Part shown: piece after piece, positions 1 through 56,630 of the stretch
Layout of the letters: every line of letters begins with the position of its first letter
Numbering within the stretch: position 1 is the stretch's first letter
IMG/VR virus record: IMGVR_UViG_3300042317_000390
Coordinates: 1 to 64,000 of that record
Direction: 5' to 3' (one strand)
DNA from: a virus
DNA: 64,000 nucleotides
Made by a program: the position numbers and the translations under genes
Notes under the pieces: model-generated
The model's input: the letters and a program-made list of their open reading frames with translations, nothing else
What the model was told of the DNA's origin: nothing
Database searches by the model: none

Positions 1-219
1 AATTGATCTTTGCCAAAGATATTGACGTGATGATTGAGTTCTTCATTGGATCCATAATAATCTAACCAGTCGGACTCGACCTTGAATTTCTTTTTCTTTC
101 CCTTTACTTGTTTAGTCTTAGAGAAATGAAAAAGCTTTTTACCGATATATCTTTTATTTGTGCGAAGATTGGTAATTATATAGACGAATCCAACATAATT
201 ACCAATATCTTCAAATATT

Positions 220-489
220 TCACCTCTGTATATCCACATCCCGAATCTCCTTCGGGATATTTATTCTACCAGCGGTTGTATTATTTTGCGCTCTTATATC
301 CTTATTATTCCAAGTCCAACATTCGCCAGTTTCGTCTTGAAAACAAACCCAATATAAATCTAGCTCAAATCCATAATCTATTAGAAAATGAGCCAACGCC
401 TTTCCTTTTGGAGTATACAAAGGCATGGGCGGATCTATACGAGTTATCACCAACCATCGCTCTCGTCTTGAGGATACATCTGAGACCAA
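220..489 (-). CDS. conserved phage hypothetical protein (true start probably downstream of 489)
   Basis: ORF track; TPKG..LAHFLIDYG.E.DL.WV.F.D.TGECWTW pattern typical of a small myovirus protein family. Confidence 0.6.
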   Translation of the reverse strand: MVSDVSSRRERWLVITRIDPPMPLYTPKGKALAHFLIDYGFELDLYWVCFQDETGECWTWNNKDIRAQNNTTAGRINIPKEIRDVDIQR

Positions 490-668
490 ACTTCATCAAA
501 CGCCTCATCTACCGATTCGTAAATATCAAATAGTTCTGCTCCATTATCCTCAAAGATAGGAATCAGTTCTCTATAGACATCACATCTTGATTCGTAATCA
601 GTAACGTTTGCTCTGATTACTGCAGCAATTTCCTCAAATATAGAAGTTCCGTTTGACCAACTTGCCAT
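447..668 (-). CDS. hypothetical acidic protein
   Basis: ORF with AAGGA RBS, in operon with neighbours. Confidence 0.6.
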   Translation of the reverse strand: MASWSNGTSIFEEIAAVIRANVTDYESRCDVYRELIPIFEDNGAELFDIYESVDEAFDEVWSQMYPQDESDGW

Positions 669-671
669 TTA

Positions 672-1067
672 TTATTCCTTTTTCTTATTTTGTTGATATA
701 CTACTGATCCATAAATCTCCTCATAAGATAGACCATCTGGAATAGCATTTACTGCTGAACTTGGTCTACCAGACATCCAAGATGACCATTGTGCATTAGC
801 AGCACTAGACGCTGTTAATGGAACGGTTGAACAATATGTTTTTGATGGGCAACGTGAATTGCCGCAGACATAACCATACGCCTTACCAACTTCAAAGAAC
901 ATACCGCAAACAATACAAGTAGTTCCTACGTTTTGTTGTCTTAACCAATCTTGATGTGGTTGTTGGTAAGGATTGGTGGGAAGCCTTTCAGACTTCCCTT
1001 TGTTATATCCAGCTTCCCAACCGTTTTGATAACCGGCATCGTAACCGTTTTTCCAGTCGTCACTCAT
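672..1067 (-). CDS. hypothetical protein with GY..GY..GW repeats and a putative Zn ribbon
   Basis: ATGA overlap with nrdJ stop; CIVC and CGNSRC motifs. Confidence 0.6.
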   Translation of the reverse strand: MSDDWKNGYDAGYQNGWEAGYNKGKSERLPTNPYQQPHQDWLRQQNVGTTCIVCGMFFEVGKAYGYVCGNSRCPSKTYCSTVPLTASSAANAQWSSWMSGRPSSAVNAIPDGLSYEEIYGSVVYQQNKKKE

Positions 1068-2965
1068 ATCTCACAGTTCCCTGCTGTACAAGCCAATGTC
1101 TGAACGCCCTCGACGTTATCATCCACTTCAACTAGAGCATCCCAATCAACTATTGTAGGAATATTTATAATAGTATTATCATATTCTTCCTTAGTGATTG
1201 TTTCATAAGGAGCTTGTCTATATGTACCACCATCATATGGAAGGAATGATACGCCAGACATTTCATCAAAATGATCATAGACCCAAGCACCGACTCGTGG
1301 CCACTCTGCCTCCGTTACGTTAATCGTAACAGAAGGTTTATGCTCACACCAATGACGCTGATACTTTAACCAAAGTTCTAGGTGATCGATAGCAGATACA
1401 CTCTCTCTAGTAATTGAAGACTCTGGTAGCTTCATAGGAAATGAAAATACAGTAGTAGAATGAGGCTTAGTAACGTCAGGCTCGTTAGGCACACCCGCAT
1501 CAATAAGATGTTTTGTAAGAGGATCTTTATTGTCACTTCTAACACGGCGAATGTAATAATGGTCGTGACCGGGATGAATACCAGAAGGACTAAGAACCAA
1601 TTGGCTGACGGTTCCAGAGGGCTTAACGCAGGTAATAGCAACTGACTGGTTAATTCCAAGCTTTTCGCTCCATTCCTTATTCGTGTCAATAGCAACCTGA
1701 CGAAGACGTTCTAGACGCTCAGGAAGTTCTGGATCTTTATAATCGTTCATTAGTGGGCAATCATAAATGCCTGTAAACGAAACACCTAGAAGCCTTTCTT
1801 CCTCTGTATTCTTCTGCCAAATCTTACGAAGATATGGGAAATGAGTCATAGTTGATTGAAACGTTCCCAATATTGTTGCGACTCTAATCTTTCTAGCAAG
1901 AGATTTCTCACTATCATCGCTTCGTATAACGACCTCTGTGAGGTTGCAAAACTGGTATGGTCGAAGGATAATCTCCGAACAGGGATTAGTTCCGAATTCA
2001 AACGATGGATCTCTTCTTCCACTTCTTTTAGCAACTTTTTGGCTTGCTTCTCTGGAAAAGATTCCACGTTCGCCCGACTTAGACTCATAGATGGAGAGCC
2101 ATTCTTGCATGAACTGTCCAACTTCTGGTTTTTCCGTATAGACTGCTGAATTATTTGATAAAGCTCTTTGTACATTTGCTTCCCACCATTGTCCTGCTTT
2201 AGCATGACGCATACGATCATCACTAAGATTAGATAGAGAAATCATAGCAGAACGGCGAACGCCACCAACTACAACAACTTCACCAATTTTACACATAATA
2301 TCATGGCACTCTAGTGAAGTTAGCTTACGACCATGAGCGTTCTTAAAGATACGAATAACAAACTTGAATAGATCGTTGAGTGGATCTGGTCCAGAAGAAC
2401 GACCACCAAATACCTTTAGTGGAGCACCAGCAGGGCGAAGCTGCGATAGATCCCACTTTGGAACTTCACCAGCGTAAAGCAAAGAGATAAGCATACGCAA
2501 TCCCTTTGACCAACCTTCCTTAGAATCACGAACTGTAATAAGAGTATCACAATCATAAAGATTCTCAGGTATCTCTGGTAGCTTATTAACATACTGACGC
2601 TCTACAGAGAAACCAACACCTGTGCCATTCATAAGAATACACATAGCCTCGTCGAATGCTTTAGGATCGTCAATCGGCAAATAAGAACAATTATAACCAG
2701 CAACGTTATCACGATCTAGCGCCTTACCAGCTGTCATAAGAGCACGCATAGAAGGCATTACTTCTAGATTATAAATTGCGTCAAATACTTCTTGCTTTAG
2801 CTTTTGATCAACCGTCCATCCCTGGCCTGTTGAAACTTTTGTGAACATATAATCCACATAACGCTGGACTGTTTCATTCCAGTGTTCACGACGATTCTTT
2901 TCTGGAAGGAATCTTGCGTAACGGGATTTATGAATATACTGCTGGTAAACTGTAAAGTCTGTCAT
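1064..2965 (-). CDS. nrdJ: class II (adenosylcobalamin-dependent) ribonucleotide reductase, monomeric type
   Basis: PSMRA, YNCSY, VVGGVRRSA, catalytic GTNPCSEI, TCVKPSGTVSQL, C-terminal redox pair ACTAGNCEI; no nrdB nearby. Confidence 0.95.
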   Translation of the reverse strand: MTDFTVYQQYIHKSRYARFLPEKNRREHWNETVQRYVDYMFTKVSTGQGWTVDQKLKQEVFDAIYNLEVMPSMRALMTAGKALDRDNVAGYNCSYLPIDDPKAFDEAMCILMNGTGVGFSVERQYVNKLPEIPENLYDCDTLITVRDSKEGWSKGLRMLISLLYAGEVPKWDLSQLRPAGAPLKVFGGRSSGPDPLNDLFKFVIRIFKNAHGRKLTSLECHDIMCKIGEVVVVGGVRRSAMISLSNLSDDRMRHAKAGQWWEANVQRALSNNSAVYTEKPEVGQFMQEWLSIYESKSGERGIFSREASQKVAKRSGRRDPSFEFGTNPCSEIILRPYQFCNLTEVVIRSDDSEKSLARKIRVATILGTFQSTMTHFPYLRKIWQKNTEEERLLGVSFTGIYDCPLMNDYKDPELPERLERLRQVAIDTNKEWSEKLGINQSVAITCVKPSGTVSQLVLSPSGIHPGHDHYYIRRVRSDNKDPLTKHLIDAGVPNEPDVTKPHSTTVFSFPMKLPESSITRESVSAIDHLELWLKYQRHWCEHKPSVTINVTEAEWPRVGAWVYDHFDEMSGVSFLPYDGGTYRQAPYETITKEEYDNTIINIPTIVDWDALVEVDDNVEGVQTLACTAGNCEI

Positions 2966-3089
2966 TTATTTTCCTCTTTGAACATAACGGTTTCTCTATA
3001 TATATTATAAATTTCTTTGAGTTTTTCATTGGGCGGAGGATATACTCGATACTTCATCATAACCCAAATTGGTATTTGCTTTCCCAGTT

Positions 3090-3425
3090 TCAGTCTTGCT
3101 TTCCATCTTCTTTTGGAATCTCGCTTTCGCATTGCTTAGCCTTGTATATATATCTCTTCTTTTGTTCAACTGTCCACATAGGAGCGGCATATGGATTATG
3201 TTGATCAAAAAGTTCTAAGTATTCTTCTTCAGTTACTACACGGTGTGATAATATGTTCTCACCAACATGTTCTTGTGCTACTTCATCAAATTCTGTTTCT
3301 CCACCAGTAGTAAAATACATAACATCTTCTACAGCATAATCTGCTGGTTGGTTATCTTCAAGTTCTACAGCGTATATATGCCGGAACATAGAGACGGTTT
3401 CAACTAATACGATTTTAGGCATCAA
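3090..3425 (-). CDS. conserved T4-like hypothetical protein
   Basis: LVETVSMFR..Y.VE and QEH.GE.I.SHR motifs. Confidence 0.6.
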   Translation of the reverse strand: MMPKIVLVETVSMFRHIYAVELEDNQPADYAVEDVMYFTTGGETEFDEVAQEHVGENILSHRVVTEEEYLELFDQHNPYAAPMWTVEQKKRYIYKAKQCESEIPKEDGKQD

Positions 3426-3703
3426 GAATCTCCGTGATTTTCAAATATAAAGGTAACTCTGGATATAGATAACCAGAATATAGCTGTCTAATCTCTCTAC
3501 CCTCGAACCTGTTATTCACTCTGTGAACGGCTCTGGCGAATTTCTTAAAGTCGTATCTATCAAACAGCATTATAATCCAAACTTCTTTCTTGACCACGGT
3601 GCGTTATGAAAGCAGTCATGATATATCCACCATGTGCCATCATCAAGCGCCTGTATAGTCCTGATTGTTTCTCCATGGATATTGATCATGGTTACGATCC
3701 TAT

Positions 3704-4474
3704 TCATGACCAGAACTTCCACCACCATGATTTAGGTTCTTGTTCTACAACAGAAGATCTATTCCTTGGAAGCCAGTGATCCTCAAATCTTGGCATGTTA
3801 GGATCTAGATCAGGATACCAATACTCTTTCAAAGATGGGAAGTGCATGAGGATTTCTTTCTGTGCTGCTAGAGCAACCTGACGGTGTTCTTTCTGTGTGC
3901 CTTCTTCTGCTCTAACATCAATATAGTGGATAAATGACCTCAACGATCCACTCATATACATTTTAGTCTCAATGAGTCCTTCTGGTAATACTGATCTAGC
4001 GACTTCTTTGGCAATGCCCATGTCAATAGCAAGTTTATATCCTTTTTCAGCGGCACTTCTGATAAGATTTTGCTGCATCTTCCATTGATAATGAACATCG
4101 TCATCATCAGTCTCAATACTATTCTGACGGTTTTTATGATCTTGAAGTCTTGCTTCCCTTGTAACAAAATTCATATCTTGCGTGGGGTCTGCATACCTTT
4201 GTGAGAACTCTTGAAAAGTGAATGAACGGTGTCGAAGAATCTGTCTACCGATATCTCTTGTGGTTGTAATCTCTAACGTAAGGAAGCAATGTTCCATAGG
4301 ACTCCAATGTTTATGCTCAATAAGATATTTCATAAGTTTTGGTGCAGTCATCATATTCAACTGATTTGATGGATTGCTTACACGGGCAACATAAACAATA
4401 TATTCCTCTGGCGTCATACCAGGATAATCTTCTACCATAGGTTTAGTGATTCCAACAATCTTCACATTACTCAT
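3704..4474 (-). CDS. thyX: FAD-dependent thymidylate synthase
   Basis: ARVSNP, HKHWSP.E, signature RHRSFTFQEFSQRY, KEVAR.VLP, TQKEHR. Confidence 0.96.
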   Translation of the reverse strand: MSNVKIVGITKPMVEDYPGMTPEEYIVYVARVSNPSNQLNMMTAPKLMKYLIEHKHWSPMEHCFLTLEITTTRDIGRQILRHRSFTFQEFSQRYADPTQDMNFVTREARLQDHKNRQNSIETDDDDVHYQWKMQQNLIRSAAEKGYKLAIDMGIAKEVARSVLPEGLIETKMYMSGSLRSFIHYIDVRAEEGTQKEHRQVALAAQKEILMHFPSLKEYWYPDLDPNMPRFEDHWLPRNRSSVVEQEPKSWWWKFWS

Positions 4475-5154
4475 TTTCTCTTCCTTCTAGTCATTCCTTT
4501 AGAGAACCCCTCTGGTATTTCGGCATCTATACTTAGAAAGATATTCTTATCTCCATCAGTATAGCATACTCTGCCTTTAGTATTACCATCGGAGTTTTCA
4601 AACTTCTGTTTCATCTTTTGTCTTATCTTGTCCTTACGTTCTTCGTTTTTTTCATCGGAAAGGTTGAACATAGGATTATATATCTTACATCTTTCGCTTC
4701 TATCCGATCGTTCCTCGTCGGTCAAGTTCAAAACTTTACCTTTACCTGCCGCACTTATTGAGTCTTTTATCTGTTGTGCTTTATCTTCACCATATAATTC
4801 TTCATAGGTTTTACCAGTCATAGACTTGTTTCGTTCAATAACTGCTATTCTGTTCTTTTCTCTGGATTTCTCTAACTGGAACGGATGCCTACCATCTTTT
4901 GAAAGTTCTAATTGAGTCTTACTAGAGATTTCCGATCTTTGTTCTGTTGTTAGAGAGATATGACCTGTAACAGACATGGCCCAACAGGCACCATAATCTC
5001 CTTGCGAGTAGTGAATATCATAGTGTTCTTTTGCCGAAACACATTGAAGATTGTCTATGTGATTATTGGAATGATTACCGTCAATATGATGTATATGATA
5101 ACCCTTCGGTATTGGACCGAAATGTTGCTCGTATAGACGGCGATAAATAGACAT
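4471..5154 (-). CDS. HNH homing endonuclease (start moved to ATG 5154)
   Basis: HIHHIDGNHSNNHIDNL..VS..EH motif, basic NUMOD-like tail (GKTYEELYG); AGGAG RBS and late promoter just upstream of ATG 5154. Confidence 0.88.
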   Translation of the reverse strand: MSIYRRLYEQHFGPIPKGYHIHHIDGNHSNNHIDNLQCVSAKEHYDIHYSQGDYGACWAMSVTGHISLTTEQRSEISSKTQLELSKDGRHPFQLEKSREKNRIAVIERNKSMTGKTYEELYGEDKAQQIKDSISAAGKGKVLNLTDEERSDRSERCKIYNPMFNLSDEKNEERKDKIRQKMKQKFENSDGNTKGRVCYTDGDKNIFLSIDAEIPEGFSKGMTRRKRK

Positions 5155-5221
5155 GCTGGCACTCCTAAACAGTGTTAGAGTAGGCGGGACTGGTACTCCG
5201 TGGCCTACAACTCTATTTAGT
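5155..5221 (-). promoter_or_regulatory. T4-type late promoter (ACTAAATA) plus structured leader of HNH gene 1
   Basis: TAAATA box followed by stems TAGA/TCTA, GTAGGC/GCCTAC, GGA/TCC and CACT/AGTG overlapping the RBS. Confidence 0.75.
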
Positions 5222-8067: not shown

Positions 8068-8733
8068 TTAGTCAAGAACCTCTAGAATACGCTGGCGCTT
8101 TTCTTCAAACTGTTGACAGGTCATCTGAAACAGTTTTTCAAGAGCATCTAGTTTAGATTGAGTTTCTGCTTGATTACGCAAGGCTTCGTCACGCTCTTTA
8201 GCCACATGCTTCAATGTAGCGTAATGGCCATTACGCTCTGAAATGGCGGCATCGAGGTCGGCTTCGGCTTTGTCAGCCCGCAAAGCATCGGGGCGACTAC
8301 GCCACTCTACGACTTCCTTTGTCAGCATCTCACATCGCTCATTGGCTACGGCAAGGTCGGTACGGAGGCGGGTGATTTCGTCGGCAACTTTCTCAGACAC
8401 GTAATGCCCCGTCTTGTCTATGTCTACGACGACTAGTCCATGTGGACCAAGGCGTTCCCGTAATTTTTCGACTTCCTCATTAGCGGCATCGAGGTCGGCA
8501 CGAAGTTTCTTTACAAGTTTCTCTATTTGAACTACTGAGTCTGTAATCGATCCGTCATTAGGTGCTCCCATTAGTTCAGCATTGACTGAAATCAAATCAG
8601 TGTAATGCTTCTTAAACTCATTGGCTGCGGCGAGTTCGGCACGAAGCCGCAGATTTTCCTCATATACGCTTTCTCTTACTTGCTTCAATTGCTGCTGATG
8701 AATGTCATTCATCACTGTTCCCCCATAATCCAA
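8068..8733 (-). CDS. coiled-coil modular protein with repeated LRA(D/E)L.AAN linkers
   Basis: four linker repeats; GC-richer than flanks. Confidence 0.6.
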   Translation of the reverse strand: MDYGGTVMNDIHQQQLKQVRESVYEENLRLRAELAAANEFKKHYTDLISVNAELMGAPNDGSITDSVVQIEKLVKKLRADLDAANEEVEKLRERLGPHGLVVVDIDKTGHYVSEKVADEITRLRTDLAVANERCEMLTKEVVEWRSRPDALRADKAEADLDAAISERNGHYATLKHVAKERDEALRNQAETQSKLDALEKLFQMTCQQFEEKRQRILEVLD

Positions 8734-31450: not shown

Positions 31451-32214
31451 TATTCTGTTAGAAGTGCTACGCCTTCACGCCCTAGCAAAGCATGAACACG
31501 TCCTAGAATTTGGAGAACAACGCCGAACACACCAAGTGCCATCCAGCCAAAGAACACGAAGCCCCAATGCAATGGTGCTACGAATAGTTCTTCCATGAAC
31601 CAGAAAGTATGACCCCATTCGTTGAGACCAACGTTTGGAATGATCATAAATGGTCCAATAGCTACAATCAAGAATGCAAGGCTGTATCCATGTGAGAAGT
31701 ATGGAATACGGGTTCTTGCATAGAAGAAAGCACCTACTGCAATTACGCTATAGATTGGATATGACATGTAGAATTCAATGATGTGACTTGGAGTAAAGTC
31801 AGTATCACGAATAACAGTCATATGCCATGTACCATCCTGTTCAGTAAAGAAGGATGCGCCCCAATAAATGGCAGCAGCATACACAACAAGCCACTGAACA
31901 AGAACTACTAGACGACGCATTTCCTCACGAGGAGCTACGGCGTCAATGTCACGATCTCTCGTCTTCCAAAGATAACCAGCAAGTGCTAGTCCTGAGACTA
32001 ACTCAAGCGGAATCTCCGTCCAGAGAATAGACATCCAATATGTCTGAAACTCGGGTGCAAATGAGTCAAGACCAGCCCTCCAGCCGAATACCTGCTCATA
32101 GATTCTGACGATTAGATAGAATGTGTTTAGAAGCGCAAGGCCAATCCACATTCCACGGAGATCAACGACATCTGACTTTGCTGCGACTGCAGCGGTTGTA
32201 GTTACTGTACTCAT
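31450..32214 (-). CDS. pmoC: particulate methane monooxygenase subunit C (auxiliary metabolic gene)
   Basis: GLDSFAPEFQTYW, ASFFTEQDGTWHMTVIRDTDFTPSHIIEFY, PNVGLNEWGHTFWFMEELFVAPLHWGFV; alphaproteobacterial-type wording; GGAG RBS. Confidence 0.98.
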   Translation of the reverse strand: MSTVTTTAAVAAKSDVVDLRGMWIGLALLNTFYLIVRIYEQVFGWRAGLDSFAPEFQTYWMSILWTEIPLELVSGLALAGYLWKTRDRDIDAVAPREEMRRLVVLVQWLVVYAAAIYWGASFFTEQDGTWHMTVIRDTDFTPSHIIEFYMSYPIYSVIAVGAFFYARTRIPYFSHGYSLAFLIVAIGPFMIIPNVGLNEWGHTFWFMEELFVAPLHWGFVFFGWMALGVFGVVLQILGRVHALLGREGVALLTE

Positions 32215-33687: not shown

Positions 33688-34822
33688 GACTTTTTCCGTT
33701 TTTTATTAAACAAATACCATTGGAGTCTTATGAAACCAATGACTCTGTTTATATAGTCTGTCAGATAAACGTCACGCTTGTTATTGAGTAACCATAGTCT
33801 ATCATAGTCAGCTTGTAGGGCAGAGATTAGATAAGCAGCCTTGCGAGGAACAGACATACATTTAACATGATTGTTCTTCTCAATCCAATCTGCTAACTCA
33901 TGCAGTTGTTTGATTATTTCGTCGTGGTCATTCATCATGCACCCCAGTAAATTACTTCTTCTATTTTACGACCCCACAAAAATGCGCCATCATTATATGC
34001 TCGTATTCTGAGAAGAACTTTCAAGTCAGAAGAAAACATGGCGTAGTCAAGAATACCACACTCTTCCATAAGCAGATCAAATGTAGGATTGGCCCATTCT
34101 TCGTCAGTCATCTATTCTCTCACCAACTTCATTGACGTGGAAACCAGCACGGACTTCTAATTCATCCTGTGTTTGTTTATAGAACTTGAACACATGATTA
34201 CAATACCATCTGTCCCAGTCTCCACCGTCAAACTTTTGTTCTTTCAAATATTCATCAAACAGTTTGTTATACTCTGCTTGAGTTATTGATTTCATTTTAG
34301 GATTTCTCTAATCCTTGTATATTGCACATTTGCTGGTTTAAGTGTTCCAAAGTCAATAATCGCCTCAGGTGCAAATGTGCTTGGATCTTCTGTAAATCCA
34401 ACAACAAATCCTTCAACCAAAATCATATCACCAACTTCAAGTTTATCAGGATCAATTTGTAACTGTGCCATTATAATTCTGCCTTCATCATTTATCTTTA
34501 TGACACTTAATGCCCATTCTACCTTCTACCCAATTACCTAACATATTAATCTCAGCATGGGTAGTACCAACAGTGCAAAGTTTGGGTTCAACTTTGGCTT
34601 CTTGGTTTTGACAAACGCTACCCACACACATGAATACAGTTGCTAATACTAAAGTTTTCATCAGAAACCAAACTGTGCCTTGACGATCTTAACGGCGATA
34701 TCAAAAGCTTCGCCTAGAACGACTTCATCAACTTCCACTCCACGCTCACGGAAAACTTCTCCCATAGCGTCAACTGCTTGTGTCTTTGTCTCAGATGTAA
34801 TATCAAACATTATGTTCTCCTT

Positions 34823-34830
34823 TATAAATA
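34823..34830 (+). promoter_or_regulatory. T4-type late promoter for spanins
   Basis: TATAAATA followed by GGAGG and ATG 34849. Confidence 0.75.
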
Positions 34831-34848
34831 TCCTAAACGGAGGATGAC

Positions 34849-35229
34849 ATGGAAATACTATTATCTCTCATAACTTCAGGATCATTACGTTATATAGTAA
34901 TCCTATTACTCGTAGCCATTGGCGGAACTTATTTCTATGTGTCCTACAAGAACTACGGTGAGTTGCAAAGAGAATTAGCTCAATACCAGTATAATATAAA
35001 ACAGCTTGAGCAATTAGTAAAGGACAGAGAAAATCAGATTCAGAACCTTAATCAGATTAATAAGGATAAGGATGAAGCTGTGGTTCTACTTGAGCAAGAA
35101 AGACGAGATCTTGAAGATAAACTAAAATCTATTGAGAGTGATATTGATATAGAGGTAGGTAAAGGTAACGATAGACCTTCTTCTAACATTCTTAAGGATA
35201 CATTTAGAAAATTAGGAGTTATGAAATGA
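34849..35229 (+). CDS. putative inner-membrane spanin
   Basis: single N-terminal TM followed by long coiled coil. Confidence 0.7.
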   Translation: MEILLSLITSGSLRYIVILLLVAIGGTYFYVSYKNYGELQRELAQYQYNIKQLEQLVKDRENQIQNLNQINKDKDEAVVLLEQERRDLEDKLKSIESDIDIEVGKGNDRPSSNILKDTFRKLGVMK

Positions 35230-35516
35230 AGCTGACCTACTTGCTAACCATATGTGCGACCATCTTGCTGACCAGCTGTAATGACCAAAGTCAAGTTATT
35301 ACAAGCTACAGATATATGGTAGTTCATCCGTCAGAAGCAATGTATTATTGCCCTGTTCTTAAAGAATTTCCTAATTGGAAGACTTTAACTGATGCACAAG
35401 TTGCAAAGACAGTAATACAGCTACAGAAGAACAATTTGAACTGCAAGAGTTCAATGCAATCTATTAAATCATTTTTGGATAAGGAAGAAAAAAGGCTCCA
35501 AAGTCAGGAGCCTTAA
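35226..35516 (+). CDS. putative outer-membrane spanin lipoprotein
   Basis: signal peptide with lipobox LLTSC, two further Cys, ATGA overlap with i-spanin. Confidence 0.7.
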   Translation: MKLTYLLTICATILLTSCNDQSQVITSYRYMVVHPSEAMYYCPVLKEFPNWKTLTDAQVAKTVIQLQKNNLNCKSSMQSIKSFLDKEEKRLQSQEP

Positions 35517-35519
35517 TCT

Positions 35520-35738
35520 TTAGTTGCCTGCGGCGTCTTTAACTGTTGTAATCTGCGTTAGGAAACGCATAACAGCCATTACTAGACCAGCGGCTAGACC
35601 AGCGGCTGGTACAACTAGATTCTCTGGAACACCCCATCCAGCTAACACTGATGTCCAATCAATACCACCAACCTTTTCGCTGACGATTGGTAGAACTGCC
35701 ATTAGGAAAGCTACGAGATAAGTCTTATAACCGTTCAT
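35520..35738 (-). CDS. small two-TM membrane protein (holin-like)
   Basis: M.GYKTY start, two hydrophobic helices, MRF.T end; AAGGAG RBS. Confidence 0.55.
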   Translation of the reverse strand: MNGYKTYLVAFLMAVLPIVSEKVGGIDWTSVLAGWGVPENLVVPAAGLAAGLVMAVMRFLTQITTVKDAAGN

Positions 35739-36037
35739 GATAATCTCCTTTCAATGAATTGCCTGTTAGGCTGTATTATTTAGGAGTATCTTCGGTCTGC
35801 TTTGTCATACACTGTGTTTTGAGATTATAACCTATCCAGAACGACCTTTGTCTACGGTCGCACCAGTTTTTACTCTTTAGGAACTTTTCGGGATCAACAC
35901 CATTACGCGCAACGCCTTTACCGATAACAAGTATTCTGGATAGTTCTTCTTTTGGTATTTTATGTCGGCGCTTGGACACGTGGATTCTCCGTTATTAGTA
36001 TACACTTATAATATACTAAAAAGTCTGAGAAGTAAAA

Positions 36038-36352
36038 TTATTCATTTCTCCAAACGAGCGCCTTTTTCTTTTCATCATCAGTTAAGATGTGAGCGATATG
36101 ATGCGCTTCGGTCTTCAGTGTACCCTTCGGTGCTACAGCTTTTATTCTATCAGAAAGATCATTATAGTTTCTTTCCAACAGAGTAACTGTATAATCAAAA
36201 GCACCATCTGATAACTTCGGATCATCTAGTTCATAGTATAAGTAGCAGGAGTATAGAAACATTGTCTCCTGCCACTCTAACATCTTCTGCCAACTAACAG
36301 CTTGACATGTATCGGAATAACCACTATTTTCTGTCTTTACCCAAGTCATCAC
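36038..36352 (-). CDS. stand-alone domain resembling subdomain Ia of NAD+-dependent DNA ligase
   Basis: YLYYELDDPKLSDGAFD matches the YY..D.P..SD..(Y/F)D motif. Confidence 0.6.
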   Translation of the reverse strand: MMTWVKTENSGYSDTCQAVSWQKMLEWQETMFLYSCYLYYELDDPKLSDGAFDYTVTLLERNYNDLSDRIKAVAPKGTLKTEAHHIAHILTDDEKKKALVWRNE

Positions 36353-36592
36353 GACCTCTCTATGATGTCCAGTAAACCCTTCAGGAATTCAACCTCAGAT
36401 AAAGCGCCTTTCTGTAATCCCTTATAATAAGGGTCTTTCAGTGGATCTTGCGCTGCATAATTGGTTCTGTTCCGAAGCCTGTCATAAAGAAACTCTTTTA
36501 TTTCCACTAGTGCTGTGTCTGCATTCTTAGTTAAGAACTTATTAGTCATTGTCTCTATCCTCATAATTAGTTATTTCATCGTCCACAGAGTA

Positions 36593-36683
36593 ATTATACT
36601 ATTATAATTTTAACAAGTAAAGTGAATTATCTTCTGGGTTACATTATTTTTTAATTTACTTGTTAGGCGCTTTCCTTTAATAT
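36593..36683. promoter_or_regulatory. divergent pair of early promoters at the strand switch
   Basis: minus TTTACT-N17-TATAAT (36621 to 36593) and plus TTTACT-N17-TAATAT (36655-36683); both start TTTACTTGTTA. Confidence 0.75.
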
Positions 36684-36713
36684 AAGAAAATAAGAAAACG
36701 GTGGAGATCACTA

Positions 36714-37373
36714 ATGGTTAAGCTGTCCCGTCCCTCCAAGATGCCTTGCGCTACTTGGTCACTGGAAGCAAGAAAAACTTGCCCAGGTTCGGTTGATCCT
36801 GTAACCAAGGAATCAGTCCCGGTCTGCGAAGGTTGTTACGCCTCTTATGGTTTCTATAAGATGCCTGCCTCCAAGAAAATTCGTATTAACAATCGTAAAG
36901 ATTGGCAGCGCAAAGAATGGGTTAGTGAGATGATCGAAGCGATCAATACTCAGAAACCCGATAAGCAAGGTAAACGATATTTTCGTTGGTTTGACTCCGG
37001 CGACATCTATCATCCTAATCTTGCCGTTAAGATTTTAGAGGTTATGAAAGGAACTCCAAAGGTTAAGCATTGGCTTCCTACTCGTTCCTACAAGATACCT
37101 AAGATCAGAGAAACATTAGAGGAAATGAAACTTCTTCCTAATGTTATGGTTCGTTATTCGTCTGATTCGATAACGGGAGAACACGGTGAGATTCACGGAT
37201 CGGTGGTTATCCCTGATCATGACTTTAAGATCAAGGCAAAGAAGTGCGATGCTTATGAACGAGACGGTAAGTGCGGTGACTGTAGAGCTTGCTGGAGTAA
37301 GAGCGTTAAGTTAATTGCTTACAGCGCTCACGGCGTTAAGATGAAGACAGTCGTTAAAAAACACGCTGCTTAG
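36714..37373 (+). CDS. GP88-family protein
   Basis: LS..SKMP...WSL.A..TCPG...C..CYA, FRWFDSGD, HWLPTR, C..CRACW. Confidence 0.8.
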   Translation: MVKLSRPSKMPCATWSLEARKTCPGSVDPVTKESVPVCEGCYASYGFYKMPASKKIRINNRKDWQRKEWVSEMIEAINTQKPDKQGKRYFRWFDSGDIYHPNLAVKILEVMKGTPKVKHWLPTRSYKIPKIRETLEEMKLLPNVMVRYSSDSITGEHGEIHGSVVIPDHDFKIKAKKCDAYERDGKCGDCRACWSKSVKLIAYSAHGVKMKTVVKKHAA

Positions 37374-37382
37374 GAGTATATA

Positions 37383-37958
37383 ATGAAACCGACATACGAA
37401 GAAGCACTCAAAGGAACTATGCAGTGGCGTGATAACTATAAGGATATTGGCATTCTATTGTCATTCCATGGTTATCGTAATGGTCCTGAGTATCAGAGCG
37501 AAGGAACATGGTGCTATTATCTATTACTAGATGAACGCATGTTCAATCCCAAAGACTGGAAAAAGATGTGGTTTAAACCTCAAGTTACAGATTGGGGGTT
37601 GGACTATAACTATTATGCGTTTCCTGATGTTGACTTTCACGGCGGCATCACGTTCTATGAACAGGGTGAGCAATATGAACGCAAGACAGGTAAGAAGTTT
37701 AAGACGCTCAAGGTAGGATGTGACTACGCTCATCTTTGGGATAGCGAACGTGGTTATCCTGATTATTATGATAGCGTCTTGTTTGATGCTAAACACTCTG
37801 TTACGTGTTTACTTTCTCACTTTCCTAACGTAAAGTGGAAGTGCGGTTATTCTGGTATTTGGGACGACCCAAAGAATTTCTATATTGCTAAGAATGGAAA
37901 ACGAATCCATATTAGCATGGAAGAAAAGATCGAATGGGCAGAATGGAAACGAGCATGA
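37383..37958 (+). CDS. hypothetical protein
   Basis: HGGITF and G.DYAHL.D motifs; AGGAG RBS. Confidence 0.65.
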   Translation: MKPTYEEALKGTMQWRDNYKDIGILLSFHGYRNGPEYQSEGTWCYYLLLDERMFNPKDWKKMWFKPQVTDWGLDYNYYAFPDVDFHGGITFYEQGEQYERKTGKKFKTLKVGCDYAHLWDSERGYPDYYDSVLFDAKHSVTCLLSHFPNVKWKCGYSGIWDDPKNFYIAKNGKRIHISMEEKIEWAEWKRA

Positions 37959-39058
37959 GAAAGTATCATCCCGGCGATAAGGTAACAGTCAGAGCAATTG
38001 TGCGGTATAACTGTATGTCTGGTAGATTGTTAGGGGTTGAGATTATCGGTGAAGGTAATATTGATCATGTGACAGTAGTAATACCTGTCGATCAAATAGT
38101 ATCACACGAGAAGGTGCCGCCAGGACAGCCTTTGGAAAGGGATGCTGCAAGTGCGTCTCGAAGACGAAGCCGACGACACCGCTGCGCTGGCGCTTCTCGC
38201 ACCCGCCGCGCACAATCCAGGAGGAACGCCATGAGCAGCATGCGCAAGCTCGAACGCGATTTCGCTCATGCCGACGCCGCTGCCGTCAACGGCTTGCTCG
38301 CGCAGCTCGGCGACGAAGACGTTATGGCACGGTTCGGCCTTGAGGCGCGGCTCGCCGACCTGCAGGCCGAGATCGCTCGGCTCGACGCCGCCGGCGACGA
38401 GCCTGTCGCGTCGGCCGCCCTGTTCTTCGGCGGTCGTCCTGTACTCGGCCAGCGGGGGATCGAGAGCGAATTCGCCGGCACCGTTATCACCAAATTTCAA
38501 GATATCGTCGCGAAGGTTCTGGCGCGCTGGGTGACACCTCGACCCTCGCCGACCCCGGCGTGGTCGATGCGCTCATCAAGGATCACGCCTCCAGCTGACG
38601 TTTGTCGACGCGCCACCTGCGTCGGCCTTGGCCTTGACAGCCAATATGTTTACCATAATGTTAGTAGGTTTGTAAAAGTATATAAGATGCACACAGCTAA
38701 AATCAAACCGCTATTCAAACCCGGTGATCGTGTTATATGGGATGATACGGCATATAACAAGAAAAGAAAAGCAACTGTTATTGCTTGCTGTGATGATGAG
38801 TATTATACTATTGAAGTGGATAGTAAGTATTCAAAATATAATACATTCAACGTCCATGTAGACAATCTTGATCCCATGCCCAAAGAAGTTAAGATAGCAG
38901 ATAAAGAATATGCTGTCAAGTGTGCTAAATGGTTTAAATCTGCTTACGCAGCGATAACAAAAGCTGGTGGTGTTCCTGAATATGTTATCGACAGTATTCC
39001 GGCTGATGTGTTAGATAATCTTATACGGAACGATCTCCACTTGGAGTATAAGAAGTGA
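37955..39058 (+). CDS. chimeric ORF spanning phage DNA and a GC-rich bacterial insert
   Basis: frame open across abrupt AT-to-GC transitions at ~38116 and ~38640; internal starts at 38231 (AGGAGG) and 38687. Confidence 0.5.
   Translation: MRKYHPGDKVTVRAIVRYNCMSGRLLGVEIIGEGNIDHVTVVIPVDQIVSHEKVPPGQPLERDAASASRRRSRRHRCAGASRTRRAQSRRNAMSSMRKLERDFAHADAAAVNGLLAQLGDEDVMARFGLEARLADLQAEIARLDAAGDEPVASAALFFGGRPVLGQRGIESEFAGTVITKFQDIVAKVLARWVTPRPSPTPAWSMRSSRITPPADVCRRATCVGLGLDSQYVYHNVSRFVKVYKMHTAKIKPLFKPGDRVIWDDTAYNKKRKATVIACCDDEYYTIEVDSKYSKYNTFNVHVDNLDPMPKEVKIADKEYAVKCAKWFKSAYAAITKAGGVPEYVIDSIPADVLDNLIRNDLHLEYKK
38116..38525 (+). other. captured bacterial fragment A: junction of a two-gene operon
   Basis: GC-rich; ..RQDSLWKGMLQVRL..GGTP-stop (TGA 38232-38234) overlapping ATG 38231 of MSSMRKLERD..ALFFGGRPVLG.RGIE.EF. 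Confidence 0.7.
38521..38598 (+). pseudogene. acs: captured 3' end of bacterial acetyl-CoA synthetase gene
   Basis: frame from 38521 reads GALGDTSTLADPGVVDALIKDHASS-stop, the conserved Acs C-terminal LGDTSTLADP motif. Confidence 0.85.
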
Positions 39059-39809
39059 CCCTATACTATTATTCTACAGAATATCCTAATGAAAAACAGG
39101 ATATGGATGAGTTCTTTGAGTATATTGCATATGAGTATGAAGACATCAATAGATTGAAATGTGATATAAATTGGTTGACAGAAGATATAGCAAAAGTAAT
39201 GTATTATGGTCATGATGGTTGGGAATGGTGGAAGTATGGTCAAACTCAAACCATCCATTTGTGGGATAGTGATAGAAACTATCTTGGTCATTTTGATGCT
39301 GAATATGAAGTCGAACCTTCTTTCATTACTAGGGATATAGTGAAGCCATGAACTCACAGGAACTCTTGAAGGCGGGATATAAACAGTGTGTTGATCATAT
39401 GGCACCTGAATATGTCAAGGAAACACGCTATTTTTATCAAAAGAAAATATACCGTATAACTGACGGTATATTGTTATATTTTATCAACGTATATGAGTAT
39501 GATTGGCGTCATTTTAATCATAGGAACAAAGACTTTGCTTATGAAGCAAAACTACATTTATATGTTGATGATAAAGCAGACTGTCTACATGTGCATTTTA
39601 ATTGTGATAAGTTTGAGGTAAGAGAACTAGAAGAATATGTCAGTGATCTATATCTACAAATAGGCTGCGTTCCAGACAAACATAATGATTGAGGTGTATT
39701 ATGCCAGATGATATCATATGACAAATATGATGTCTATGGTTTTTATAAGAGTAGCAAGGTCACTGTGGAATTGGACGATAAATAAGAAAAACATTCCCAA
39801 AGAGCGATT

Positions 39810-40017
39810 GATGTCAAGTTTATCAGAATCATTACAAAGACGCAAAGAAGTAGCAAAAGAGCGTCTTGCTATATGCATGGATTGCGATAAATACAACCAT
39901 ACTACAACTCAATGTAATGAGTGTGGTTGTATTATGTTGTTAAAAACAATTCTTGCTAGTTCGTCATGTCCTTTGAAAAAGTGGGGAGTTGATAACGAAG
40001 AAAATCATAAGGAATAA
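39810..40017 (+). CDS. Cys-rich small protein (DUF6171-like); probable start ATG 39810
   Basis: RL.IC..C...C..CGC....K.......CP..KW. Confidence 0.65.
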
Positions 40018-40022
40018 CATTT

Positions 40023-40712
40023 ATGGCTACACCAGCTTCCGGTCAAATATCATTTTCGCAGATAGCACAAATTGTTTATAATAATGCCAGCGCTACAGTT
40101 TCTTTTAATGATACTGACGTTAGAAAGTTATTGAATACAACTACTGATCTTAGTACAATATCATTCAGCGTTGCTTATAGCAAACCAGTAGCTAATTCTT
40201 ATTCATATACATCTGCCGGAGATTACACTCTTTTAATTCTACCATATCAGAACATAGACGTTGATGCTCGTGGCGGAGGTCAGGGTGGTAATGGTGGAAC
40301 GGGTTCAGATACTTGTACTGGATGGTGTGGACAATTATGCTTCTTTAACTATTGCTGTAACGGCAGAGGCGGTGCTGCAGGTGATTCAGGTGGTGATAGT
40401 TATTTCAGAGGCGACGGTAAAGATATAACAGCATATGCTGGAACTTCAAGTGGTGCAGGTGGTGGTTATGGTGGATCTGTAACTACAGGCGGCGGTGGAG
40501 CCGGTGGCACTTTGGGTTACGGTTTCGGATGTACTGGTAGCAACGGTAGTGCTGGTAATCCTGGTGGTAGAGTTACAAAGACTTATACAAAAGGTTCCGA
40601 TGGACCAGGATACACTACTTCTATAGCCATAAGAGTTGGTGGTGGTGGAGCCGGTGGATATAACGCCGGTGGAACTGGTGGTTCTGGCGCTGTATATGTA
40701 TCAATAAGATAA
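40023..40712 (+). CDS. glycine-rich fibre-tip/adhesin-like protein
   Basis: MATPASGQIS..I N-terminus, polyglycine runs, GG.G.V.(V/I) end as in gp38-like adhesins. Confidence 0.65.
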   Translation: MATPASGQISFSQIAQIVYNNASATVSFNDTDVRKLLNTTTDLSTISFSVAYSKPVANSYSYTSAGDYTLLILPYQNIDVDARGGGQGGNGGTGSDTCTGWCGQLCFFNYCCNGRGGAAGDSGGDSYFRGDGKDITAYAGTSSGAGGGYGGSVTTGGGGAGGTLGYGFGCTGSNGSAGNPGGRVTKTYTKGSDGPGYTTSIAIRVGGGGAGGYNAGGTGGSGAVYVSIR

Positions 40713-40725
40713 TCGGAGAAATAAT

Positions 40726-41310
40726 ATGTCAGAACAACCATTATATCTTATGATTGATGAAGATGGTAAGCCAGCGTCTCATCCAATTATAGAACAAAAC
40801 CTAAGAGATATATTTGAAAATTTCTATGATAGAGATCCACCTAAAGGGTTTGTTAAGTTCGTAAAGACTCCCATGCCTCAGTTAGGGCCATACGAGAAAT
40901 ATGATTACTTGGAGTATGCTTATAGCCCAGAACTGTCAGAACAGTATAAACAACCAACTTGGCACGAAGTTCATCATATAGCTACAATAGAGAACGATGA
41001 ACGTAAGGATATTATCAAATCGTTTAAGAAACTAAATCCAGATCTTCAAGATTGGGTTTATGATGAAAACCTTAAATCACTAGTTCCACCAATTCCAAAG
41101 CCAGATGATGGTAAAGAATATCTATGGAACACAGACCATAAGGAGTGGATGGAAGCTAAGCCAGAAATGCACTTTGATAAAATGATAGAGGTTGCTAAAG
41201 AATTAGGTTATGATCTAGCAGCAGGTCTACATGGTAAGCCAAAAGGCGTAACTGAAGAAATGGTAAATGAGATCATTGCTCAGATACGAAAAGAAAATGT
41301 AAATGAGTGA
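40726..41310 (+). CDS. putative tail-fibre-associated protein
   Basis: W..DE....VPP.PKP.DGK.Y.W......W motif. Confidence 0.5.
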   Translation: MSEQPLYLMIDEDGKPASHPIIEQNLRDIFENFYDRDPPKGFVKFVKTPMPQLGPYEKYDYLEYAYSPELSEQYKQPTWHEVHHIATIENDERKDIIKSFKKLNPDLQDWVYDENLKSLVPPIPKPDDGKEYLWNTDHKEWMEAKPEMHFDKMIEVAKELGYDLAAGLHGKPKGVTEEMVNEIIAQIRKENVNE

Positions 41311-54494: not shown

Positions 54495-54672
54495 CATAGT
54501 GTGTTATGGTGCAGTCTCAGCTCTCTCTTATATAATAGATTATGCATGGCTCAGTTGAAGCTAGTTTAAAAAGATTCCGAACAACGAAAAAAAGAGTTTA
54601 CTTGGGGCGATGTTAGGACTAATCTCTAACTATCGGCGAAACGGTTCGCTGGTCTTAACTGGAGTAGGTAAT

Positions 54673-55185
54673 ATGGAAAATATCGCTTTTGCCCCCGTGT
54701 CGTTTGCTGACTTCTCTGCGGCTGTTGTTGCGGCTGGTTATACGCCGGTTCAGTATAGCGGCACTGGTTATTATGTTAAGGCGAAAAACGGCATTCGTGT
54801 CGAATTTCAGAACACTAAGGGCGGCCAGTTTGGCGTTGGTTACACTAACCCGGTCAATAAGGTTGCGGCTGTGTTCGATGCGCTCCAGGCTAATCCTGTG
54901 GACGGTCTGGTGTATATAAACCGCATTACCCGTTCTTTTAACTATCGCGCCACGGATGTCGCTGGCTTCTTGAAACTGGTGGACGCTGTCGGTGCCGTAA
55001 AACTGCCCGCTAGTGCCCGTGAAGTCAACGCTGCTACCCCTGTGGCGGCTAAGCCCCAGAAACCCGTCTATAAGGTTGCTGATGCCCGCCGCGTTGATCC
55101 GGCGTCGGATGCAGGCAAGGCCATCGCCAGTGACGCACTCGCTTCCATCGCGCTCATCGAATCCAAGACGAAGAAGCGGGCATAA
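54673..55185 (+). CDS. isolated GC-richer hypothetical protein (start ATG 54673)
   Basis: GGAG RBS, own GTTTAC promoter and strong terminator. Confidence 0.7.
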   Translation: MENIAFAPVSFADFSAAVVAAGYTPVQYSGTGYYVKAKNGIRVEFQNTKGGQFGVGYTNPVNKVAAVFDALQANPVDGLVYINRITRSFNYRATDVAGFLKLVDAVGAVKLPASAREVNAATPVAAKPQKPVYKVADARRVDPASDAGKAIASDALASIALIESKTKKRA

Positions 55186-55200
55186 CATAGGCTTAACCAT

Positions 55201-55229
55201 AAGGGCGGGGTTCATCCCCGCCTTTTTTT
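55201..55229 (+). terminator. intrinsic terminator
   Basis: AAGGGCGGGG-TTCAT-CCCCGCCTTT-TTTT. Confidence 0.9.
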
Positions 55230-56630
55230 GGCCTTAATGCGTTCTCGTTTCGTTCTTATGCTTAAGCTGAGCCATTGGTGACCCACCCCCACACATTTAA
55301 GGATTCATGGTGAAGCTCACGGTTCCATCGCCCTTTAGCCACCATGGTTCACAGAGAGTCACTAATTCTCACAGAAACCCATACCCCCTCCCCCCACTTT
55401 TATATACGGAAACGCACTATTTAAATTTTTTTGCGCTAAAATTTTACTCCTTATAAACATCACTGTTCGGAGTGCTTTCACCACTGGATTTATTGTTTTG
55501 CGTTTCATCTTTCTTTATTATCTCCAAATTGTGTAAATCTATAATGAGTTGGATCATTTGTAGTTTTTGACGATCTGCACCAAGACCACGCCAGGTCTCA
55601 CTCTTTTCTTTTGCATAAATAAGGCGAATAAGGATTTCTTTTTCCTTATTGATATACTCAATTTGTTTTGATGACAGTTTCATTACCGAGCCTCCACGTT
55701 GAACTTCTTCTTGAGTCTTTCAAACTCTTCACGATCACGCTTTTCTGTCATCTCCCTATAGTATTCTTCTTGTACTATTCTCTTATTATATTCATCATCA
55801 GTTTCTAGACGTTCTGCTTTCAATACGATATGTCTGCCAAAACCATCGAAATCATCTTGAAATTCAAACATAGCATTAGAGCCATATTCTTTTTTCCAAG
55901 AGTCAATTTGATTACTAAAACTCTCAAGAGTTGCATAATCCATATCAACGTAAGTCTCAACAATATCCCATACTTTATTCTTAGACATCTTAGCTCTCCT
56001 ATAGCTTAATATACTCTATATAATTCTCTCTCATAAATACTCTATCTTCTGAGAGCATATGAATAATTGTGCCCATTATATCATATTCACGTTTATATTC
56101 TTTTAACTGACGCAGTTCATAGAGCTTCATATAGAGCTTACCAACAGTTTCCTCTATTTCTATCTCTAGCTGTTCAGCGGATTTCATAGTTCATTCCCAT
56201 AGGTCATAACTCTAATCAGGCGATATCTCTCTGTCTTAGCCTTTTCTTCGGTATCAAATTCCATATTAAGATTAGCCTCCATATTGGATAATACTACAGT
56301 AAAATAGTATTTCTCATTTGTATTATTATAGCAGATTTTCCCTACTAATACAATATAGTCTGTGTTAAGAGCTACACCGCTTTCGGTTTCAAATACGCTC
56401 ATAATGCAAACTCCACAAGCTTTACTATCTTCACAGCTAGTTCATTAAAATTCTTCACATACAGATCTTCACCATACTCATTATGAATAATAGCGTCCTT
56501 GTATATAATATCTTCTATTTTCTCTATGAGATCTTTTCTTTGATTGTTTTTATAATTATCAACATATTCCATACCTTTACGAACGCCTTCCTGTATAGCT
56601 ATCATTCTTAATGCTATACATACATCTGGT

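Follow-up and report, generated by a model that had tools for sequence, protein, structure and literature searches.

The locus and its features

The stretch of DNA analysed here, hereafter the window, is the first 64 kb (64,000 nucleotides) of the IMG/VR virus record IMGVR_UViG_3300042317_000390, a genome of 168,653 bp that is rated complete by CheckV, and the subject is a GC-rich island at positions 38118-38643 of it, where fragments of bacterial genes are fused into an open reading frame (ORF) of the phage. The phage is assigned to the T4-like phages by a profile match of its Gp23 major capsid gene (505 bits), it encodes a RecA/UvsX-like recombinase, and it carries a pmoC gene at 31477-32193 on the minus strand (358 bits against AmoC). 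An earlier note, made from the letters of the window only, had pointed to the island as an abrupt change in composition, and this is borne out: its GC content is 0.66, with 0.63-0.69 in windows of 200 nucleotides (nt) between approximately 38100 and 38640 and 0.35-0.42 in the flanks, and no other place in the genome is as strong a GC outlier (up to 0.727 in 150 nt, against a genome-wide mean of 0.385 with a standard deviation of 0.052). The features of the locus are as follows, with lengths of proteins in amino acids (aa) and with L numbers as our labels for loci in other records.

37955..38117, plus strand: remnant of a 105-aa gene with SH3-like repeats, first 54 codons (homology to L035:4346-4498, MTKYHPGDKVTV...VSHE, in nucleotides and amino acids)
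38118..38527, plus strand: part A, a 410-nt copy of a segment of a Methylocystis-type conjugative plasmid (410/410 against L045-L048 and L050-L054)
38118..38234, plus strand: tail of a DUF6932 gene, last 38 codons and TGA stop (PF22014, PADLOC PDC-M63A); read out of frame by the phage ORF
38220..38225, plus strand: Shine-Dalgarno sequence GGAGGA, captured together with the ATG (38231) that follows 5 nt after it; the donor contigs have the same letters
38231..38527, plus strand: first 99 codons of the plasmid gene for a 319-aa protein; its native frame is the frame of the phage ORF
38521..38527, plus strand: joint of parts A and B, GGCGCGC, 7 nt common to the donor of part A and to acs relatives
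38521..38598, plus strand: part B, coding, last 25 codons and stop of acetate-CoA ligase (acs); read out of frame by the phage ORF
38599..38643, plus strand: part B, non-coding, 45 nt with a hairpin, presumed to be the sequence downstream of acs and contiguous with it
38644..39058, plus strand: phage 192-aa gene, C-terminal 138 codons and stop, with the invariant C-terminal block (aligned to P0124-P0129)
37955..39058, plus strand: chimeric ORF of 367 aa; 374 aa from an ATG at 37934, 275 aa from the internal start at 38231

The plasmid segment

Part A is identical in all of its 410 nt to nine contigs of a conjugative element, which come from nine datasets, and all nine continue on both sides of the segment as intact plasmid genes. 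The region of this donor that encodes the type IV secretion system (T4SS) has 90.5% identity over 5.2 kb to three plasmids of Methylocystis iwaonis, and the next genus is Bosea with 73%. By these matches, part A was copied from a Methylocystis-type conjugative plasmid and has not changed since. The suggestion that the patch could serve as a barcode of the host is upheld by the same T4SS region, as it points to Methylocystis. The plasmid also occurs in several metagenomes of the series from which the phage comes, and the two are found together in at least one assembly. The direction of the transfer was from plasmid to phage, because in the plasmid the segment is part of two intact genes, both conserved across Alphaproteobacteria, and has the composition of the plasmid.

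The gene order of the plasmid is VirB8, VirB9/CagX, VirB10/TrbI, VirB11, the coupling protein, a DUF5615-DUF433 pair, a helix-turn-helix (HTH) gene, an MmeI_N fragment, DUF6932 (193 aa), the 319-aa gene, BubE, an E1-JAB protein (466 aa), an E2/Multi_ubiq protein (369 aa), a pair of an HTH gene and an M78 peptidase, and the relaxase. The genes between the coupling protein and the relaxase form a compact accessory block (L045:7239-13823), the order of which is kept in L046-L048 and L050-L054, and the pair of DUF6932 and the 319-aa gene stands beside a Bub operon also in unrelated Alphaproteobacteria (L002, L029, L032, L033). The segment is thus taken from an accessory, defence-like region of a plasmid and not from a chromosome. 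The earlier note had described part A as a bacterial operon junction, and so it is, with the DUF6932 and 319-aa genes overlapping by ATGA; the identity to the donor over 410 nt moves its boundaries from 38116-38525 to 38118-38527. The 319-aa donor protein has no significant fold match in PDB and no Pfam or PADLOC family, and no mention of DUF6932 or of the sample identifiers was found in papers.

More distant relatives had already indicated such a donor. The search of species genomes with part A gave a Mesorhizobium at 79% nt identity and a Methylocystis metagenome-assembled genome (MAG) at 73%, and relatives in the protein collection reached up to 91% (L032), where the protein searches return representatives of 90%-identity clusters, which hides the exact donor protein. 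Counted by codon position in the frame of DUF6932, one that the phage ORF leaves unused, the differences between the window and L032 come to 0, 1 and 11, and when the changes were polarised, 16 of the 19 on the lineage of the window were at third positions of the bacterial frames. From this bias we predicted a donor that had not been sampled rather than an old capture, an analysis that was superseded when the exact donor was found: contig L043 (the same as L049), which carries the downstream phage gene, had the full DUF6932 gene and further bacterial genes upstream of it, and a lookup of that exact protein led to the bacterial contigs in the nine datasets.

The tail of acs

Part B has a GC content of 0.669 (38526-38643) and is translated as GALGDTSTLADPGVVDALIKDHASS followed by a stop. 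Its first 47-62 nt have 80-98% identity to 3' ends of acs across genomes of the family, the order and the genus; the ORFs that it matches are acetate-CoA ligases (NF001208, over 930 bits; L023, L015), and plasmid records in PLSDB annotate the matching stretch as "acs: acetate--CoA ligase". The translation, the PLSDB annotation and NF001208 all agree with the proposal that these are the last 25 codons of acetyl-CoA synthetase. The proposed CGACGC/GCGTCG hairpin is also there, with 9 pairs (38604-38626). Neither this terminator-like hairpin (z of -1.28) nor a second one at 38628-38644 is stronger than those of shuffled sequence.

Part B in full was not found in 401 genomes of the family, 401 of the order and 78 species genomes of Methylocystis, nor in the plasmids of PLSDB. 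Two scans of JGI metagenome contigs gave no intact acs that carries it; to keep out the phage, their search patterns allowed no T before GGCGCGC, and a donor whose codon at that place is TTT or TAT would escape them. Part A runs into the 319-aa gene and not into acs in each of the nine donor contigs, and the loci of the two parts are on different contigs in a Methylocystis MAG, in agreement with an origin from two unrelated loci. High identity at two distant loci in genomes of Methylocystaceae/Beijerinckiaceae type had been expected, of which the separate loci were found, with the exact match of part A in plasmid contigs and no exact donor of part B. Likewise, the capture is fresh as far as part A is concerned, with no difference in 410 nt, and for part B the freshness is unproven.

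A mobile element (an insertion sequence, a miniature inverted-repeat transposable element, a homing endonuclease or an intron) was considered as an explanation of the island and rejected: neither terminal inverted repeats nor a target-site duplication nor a mobility gene was found at its borders, and its content is fragments of genes. A complete host-derived gene (a moron or auxiliary metabolic gene, AMG) was rejected as well, as only 38 codons of DUF6932, 99 of the 319 codons of its partner and 25 of acs have been captured. Just inside both ends of the patch there is a direct repeat with 10 of 12 positions alike (38119-38130, GCCAGGACAGCC, and 38631-38642, GCCTTGACAGCC), which is probably coincidental, since approximately 20 chance pairs of 7-mers are expected in such a region.

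Phage genes lost at the locus

In the related phages L035 and L038 the genes at this locus are, in order, of 190, 76, 105, 110 and 192 aa. Homology to the 105-aa gene of L035 is found at window positions 37955-38110, over the initial 52 codons of that gene (74% nt identity), and homology to the 192-aa gene at 38644-39058, from codon 56 onwards (L035:5165-5579, 92%). What lies between these in L035, approximately 0.66 kb at 4499-5164, is missing from the window. The phage has lost the 110-aa gene completely, together with half of the 105-aa gene and 55 codons of the 192-aa gene, and has gained approximately 0.53 kb of filler in exchange. On this comparison the patch is a deletion that contains two filler fragments and not a simple insertion. 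The idea of an insertion into one phage gene must consequently be abandoned, since the patch bridges two phage genes and a third has been lost. The empty allele that was to be looked for in relatives was found in so far as L035 and L038 have the locus unpatched, although even the closest relative is only 74-92% identical locally.

The remnant of the 105-aa gene starts in an ATGA in which the 191-aa gene that precedes it stops. L035 has a 76-aa gene that the window lacks; the homolog of the 105-aa gene here begins right at the ATGA overlap, and the absence of the 76-aa gene may be an older difference between L035 and the phage of the window. The genes concerned are tandem paralogs (L035:4346-5579 and L038:4373-5558; 103-105, 105-110 and 185-192 aa) with SH3-like "GD(K/R/E)V ... 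V" repeats, the longest of which has an invariant C-terminal block (KAGGVPE.VIDSIP.DVLDNLIRNDLHLEYKK); none of the three affected genes has a PHROG or Pfam family. All homologs of the downstream 123-aa piece are approximately 176-196 aa long and have a different N-terminus. The INPHARED phage collection has no match to the locus. A scan of IMG/VR, which may not have included the record of the window itself and those nearly identical to it, gave relatives of the neighbouring gene at only 30-40% identity; within the same limit, neither a relative of the 123-aa piece nor the patterns of the junction and of the acs tail were found.

The joints

At the joint between the two parts the plasmid reads AAGGTTCTGGCGCGC followed by GAGAACGG (the donor side can also be written as CTGGCGCGC followed by GAGAACGG), and the phage reads AAGGTTCTGGCGCGC followed by TGGGTGAC; relatives of acs have GAATTC followed by GGCGCGCTGGG(C/T)GAC. 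The overlap of approximately 5 nt (GGCGC) that was first reported is real but longer, 7 nt (GGCGCGC, 38521-38527). It is certain on the side of part A and deduced from relatives on the side of acs, where two of the four relatives shown carry the 7-mer. An overlap of at least 5 nt has a chance probability of approximately 0.007, and one of 7 nt, by the same formula, below 0.001.

At the left joint the plasmid reads CACATCGG followed by CGCCAGG, the phage CACGAGAAGGTGC followed by CGCCAGG, and the relative L035 CATGAGGCTCCGCTACG, in a variable linker (SHE-AP and SHEKVP). Aligned in this way, the phage part probably reaches 38117-38120, and plasmid and phage possibly overlap by 3 nt (CGC). At the right joint, the homology to the phage 192-aa gene begins at 38644 with ATATGT.

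The same junctions in independent assemblies

The source record is a metagenome assembly, and an alternative to a biological origin is an artefact of assembly or binning, by which a GC-rich block was falsely joined to a phage contig. Over the island and its three joints, the window is matched without a difference by six loci from JGI, NCBI and Logan, and L042 and L044 add two datasets with an identical island, so that the sources are JGI, NCBI, ENA and Logan; island and junctions are 100% identical in L010-L014, L042 and L044, which represent at least seven datasets and two strains. Samples with the phage are JGI 3300042539, 3300034111, 3300034063, 3300042476, 3300059473 and 3300042540 and the runs SRR27430813 and SRR27421325. 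The exact proteins of the neighbouring genes were also looked up in public assemblies, where 55 blocks contain the 191-aa protein from upstream of the island and 34 the 98-aa protein from downstream of it. All 16 contigs that were read for the former have the same arrangement wherever they reach the island, and all 24 that were read for the latter carry the island sequence.

Two contigs are irregular at the locus. L014, a phage contig of 17.9 kb (JGI 3300034063), ends at 38527, which is the last base common to phage and plasmid, as expected at a branch of the assembly graph when both molecules are in the sample. L049 (JGI 3300042540 Ga0453068_0005254, the same as NCBI JBFDLS010002122.1) is a hybrid of plasmid and phage: its positions 1-4241 are 100% plasmid and 3832-10287 are 99.6% phage, the overlap being the shared 410 nt, and it arose either from a mis-join by the assembler or from true homologous recombination of phage and plasmid. 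Break and overlap fall exactly where phage and plasmid diverge, which is consistent with a genuine capture. Both the break and the hybrid are there because phage and plasmid have these 410 nt in common, and they are a warning that the shared segment causes contig breaks and phage-plasmid mis-joins in public assemblies.

The hybrid L049 and the break of L014 at the joint of parts A and B could be taken as signs that the whole locus is such an artefact. The three junctions are nevertheless the same base for base in at least seven datasets from four sources and from different assemblers, including a Logan contig, and this disposes of the assembly chimera that the earlier note had listed among its possible refutations. 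Moreover, the joints have only 3-7 nt in common, far below what a mis-join by k-mers needs, and a comparison with related phages shows that the phage genes on either side break off at the very joints, which a false insertion would not bring about. We regard an artefact as extremely unlikely.

Strain L013, which was compared over window positions 34383-40958, has 32 single-nucleotide polymorphisms (SNPs) in 34448-37079 and none from 37080 to 40958, and its island is identical. This distribution looks like a mosaic, which could come from recombination or from a sweep of the segment that bears the patch.

A probable repair scar made of resident bacterial DNA

Taken together, we think it highly probable that the patch is a genuine and evolutionarily very recent scar of repair or recombination in a T4-like pmoC phage of Methylocystis. 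The phage would have infected a cell that carried the plasmid, and a break or a stalled end in the block of small tandem paralogous genes would have been healed at the cost of approximately 0.66 kb of phage DNA, with two pieces of resident bacterial DNA patched in. In the first step the broken end would prime on the plasmid at a tiny homology and copy 410 nt, in the second it would switch at GGCGCGC to an acs template, of which approximately 120 nt would be copied, and in the third it would re-anneal to phage DNA approximately 0.66 kb downstream. T4-type phages replicate by recombination-primed replication and have many invading 3' ends, and the likeliest process seems to be a microhomology-primed template switching by such an end during recombination-dependent replication. 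Microhomology-mediated joining of host fragments would leave the same scar, and end-joining is in this respect indistinguishable from template switching; a ligase of PF01068, the only ligase family covered by the search, was not found in the phage. A variant in which the frame was kept would have survived, with ribosomes still able to get to the conserved C-terminal domain of the 192-aa protein and to the coupled gene behind it. There would then have been selection for the in-frame outcome, and the filler itself is most likely a tolerated passenger.

Four points weigh against this account. The support for the junctions comes from assemblies only. The immediate pre-capture allele is unsampled, so that the size of the deletion and the microhomology at the left junction, both taken from the comparison with relatives, are approximate. 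As the donor of part B was not found, we can only infer its freshness, its right boundary and the microhomology on the acs side. Finally, the in-frame outcome is only moderately improbable, and it is suggestive of selection for read-through and no proof of it: both joints fall in the single open frame by chance with a probability of approximately 1/9 given the filler, and of approximately 0.015 a priori.

Parts A and B could also have been joined beforehand, in a bacterial, plasmid or other phage genome, and copied into the phage once as a mosaic. It fits with this that the donor of part B was not found, and it should be noted that the joint of the two parts (...CTGGCGCGCTGGGTGAC...) was seen in phage contigs only; a donor of the joined form may simply be missing from the collections. 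The gene of part A, however, continues as a protein of approximately 310-319 aa in the nine donor contigs and in all of the 246 homologs with a length of at least 171 aa; searches of the protein collection gave no non-phage joint of A and B, and the mosaic needs an extra rearrangement that nothing supports. We therefore consider a single capture very unlikely.

The chimeric ORF and the decoy hypothesis

The claim that the phage frame stays open across all three junctions is correct (37934/37955..39058), and it is the only forward frame without stops, the other two having 3 and 2 stops in the island. The codons of the ORF come, in order, from the 105-aa gene (54), the tail of DUF6932 (38, out of frame), the 319-aa gene (99, in the native frame), acs and the sequence downstream of it (approximately 39, out of frame) and the 192-aa gene (138). 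Gene callers differ on the same DNA and give 374, 275 or 123 aa. If only a read-through product survived, the cause may be that translation from upstream is needed for the 192-aa protein's invariant C-terminal block and for the overlapping downstream start (GTGA, 39055). In one contig of 1,056 bp (L041, JGI 3300042476), positions 1040-1048 of which include window positions 38651-38653, the codon TAC is changed to TAG at 38653, after the right joint, so that a reading from the captured ATG would end after 140 aa; with only 9 nt between it and the end of the contig, the change may be an error and is weak evidence.

A different possibility is that the patch is a newborn anti-defence gene. The 99-residue fragment, driven by the captured Shine-Dalgarno sequence and ATG or embedded in the long ORF, would then act as a dominant-negative decoy that binds the DUF6932 protein of the plasmid and poisons a two-gene module, a candidate for a defence or toxin-antitoxin-like system, and the patch would have swept for that reason. 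The fragment has kept its native frame and the GGAGGA and ATG of the plasmid gene, and it ends at residue 99, near the end of the N-terminal module (1-101) and before a disordered linker in the AlphaFold2 (AF2) model of the 319-aa protein, where this module has helices at 3-25, 31-52 and 79-101. A complex of DUF6932 and residues 1-99 is predicted with an ipSAE of 0.71 (median of 3 runs; 0.01 for the best of 3 controls), and among 80 solved complexes 58 come up to the mark used for ipSAE, among 110 mismatched pairs 2, counts that are rough (own alignments). At least 67% of the contacts agree between the runs, the partner has a pLDDT of at least 63, and the predicted interface is formed by residues 11-43 of the fragment and 93-156 of DUF6932. 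DUF6932 matches the PADLOC candidate PDC-M63A (1.4e-10), and the gene pair adjoins a Bub-type E1/E2/JAB operon in a plasmid region rich in defence-like genes. The presence of the patch in every sampled copy of the phage and the absence of SNPs in L013 from 37080 to 40958 are compatible with a sweep.

Even so, translationally coupled neighbours are expected to bind each other whether or not a phage exploits the binding, and the only evidence for a defence role of the pair is the PADLOC candidate match, with no significant fold match. The acs scrap and the out-of-frame tail of DUF6932 are plainly functionless filler, as in a random patch, and there is zero sequence variation in the island, which makes selection not measurable. 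On balance we find the decoy unlikely, and less so than the artefact or the single capture. If true, it would be a testable candidate for the birth of a decoy protein.

Relation to known systems

Scars of break repair with filler DNA or templated insertions, by non-homologous end joining (NHEJ), alternative end joining (alt-EJ) or microhomology-mediated break-induced replication and fork stalling and template switching (MMBIR/FoSTeS), are known mainly from plants, yeast and mammals. The patch is like them in that resident DNA is deleted, that two short segments come from unlinked loci, and that the joints seem to have a microhomology of a few nt, and it differs in that it is found in an uncultivated population of T4-like phages and that one donor is a co-resident host plasmid with 100% identity. 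Phage mosaicism and the gain of host genes by illegitimate recombination are well established. With morons and AMGs such as pmoC the patch has in common that the DNA is host-derived and sits in a phage genome of lytic type, that it contrasts in composition, and that it lies among small genes of early type; here, in contrast, two gene ends and one gene start have been captured, and part A has zero divergence. As compared with anti-defence decoys, the captured module is predicted to bind its operon partner and has kept its own translation signals, whereas the source module is only a candidate defence system and the fragment is embedded in a longer chimeric ORF.

To our knowledge, almost all examples of host genes gained by phages are old and ameliorated, and the initial product has never been seen. 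Here, the first step of the capture of host DNA is preserved at zero divergence from an identified donor, as far as part A is concerned, and the patch would be the raw and mostly useless product that precedes any AMG. What is new is the resolution, with a base-identical donor of part A, the lost DNA of the recipient and both filler pieces defined, and with phage and plasmid both present in one series of lake metagenomes. The patch also gives a link at nucleotide level between phage and plasmid, and hence host, that is independent of CRISPR spacers or correlations of abundance, and it is a natural test case for dating a capture and tracking it through a metagenome time series.

The pmoC gene and other GC-rich segments

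The PmoC of the phage scores approximately 500 bits against the PDB chains 3rfr, 4phz and 3chx, which are enzymes of Methylocystis/Methylosinus, and approximately 335 bits against 1yew and 6cxh, which are gammaproteobacterial, and it is by these scores of the alpha type. The GC content of the gene is 0.455, between that of the phage and that of the patch, which is consistent with a much older and ameliorated acquisition from an alpha-type methanotroph. That a process like the one at the island could have yielded pmoC, as the earlier note suggests, is an analogy. Phages of 160-174 kb with a pmoC of "Alpha-" type, which are predicted to infect Methylocystis, were described by Chen et al. 2020 (PMC7674155), and the phage of the window is like these in size, GC content and type of pmoC. 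Three of the pmoC phages from Lake Mendota (LM_1, LM_7 and LM_8) have in common a partial, Methylocystis-like acyl-CoA dehydrogenase fragment, which was taken as a clue to the host (PMC7674155). Our case is similar, a Methylocystis-like gene fragment in an alpha-type pmoC phage of approximately 160-174 kb, and it differs in the genes and the locus concerned, and in that the donor at nucleotide level, the junctions, the deleted DNA and the structure of two fragments are resolved.

The next-strongest GC-rich segments of the genome are at 54901-55250, in an ORF at 54610-55185 on the plus strand (GC content up to 0.63), and at 8176-8425, in an ORF at 8068-8733 on the minus strand (up to 0.59). Neither ORF has a Pfam match, and both segments could be older acquisitions. 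The former is followed by a clear hairpin with a run of T near 55198-55225.

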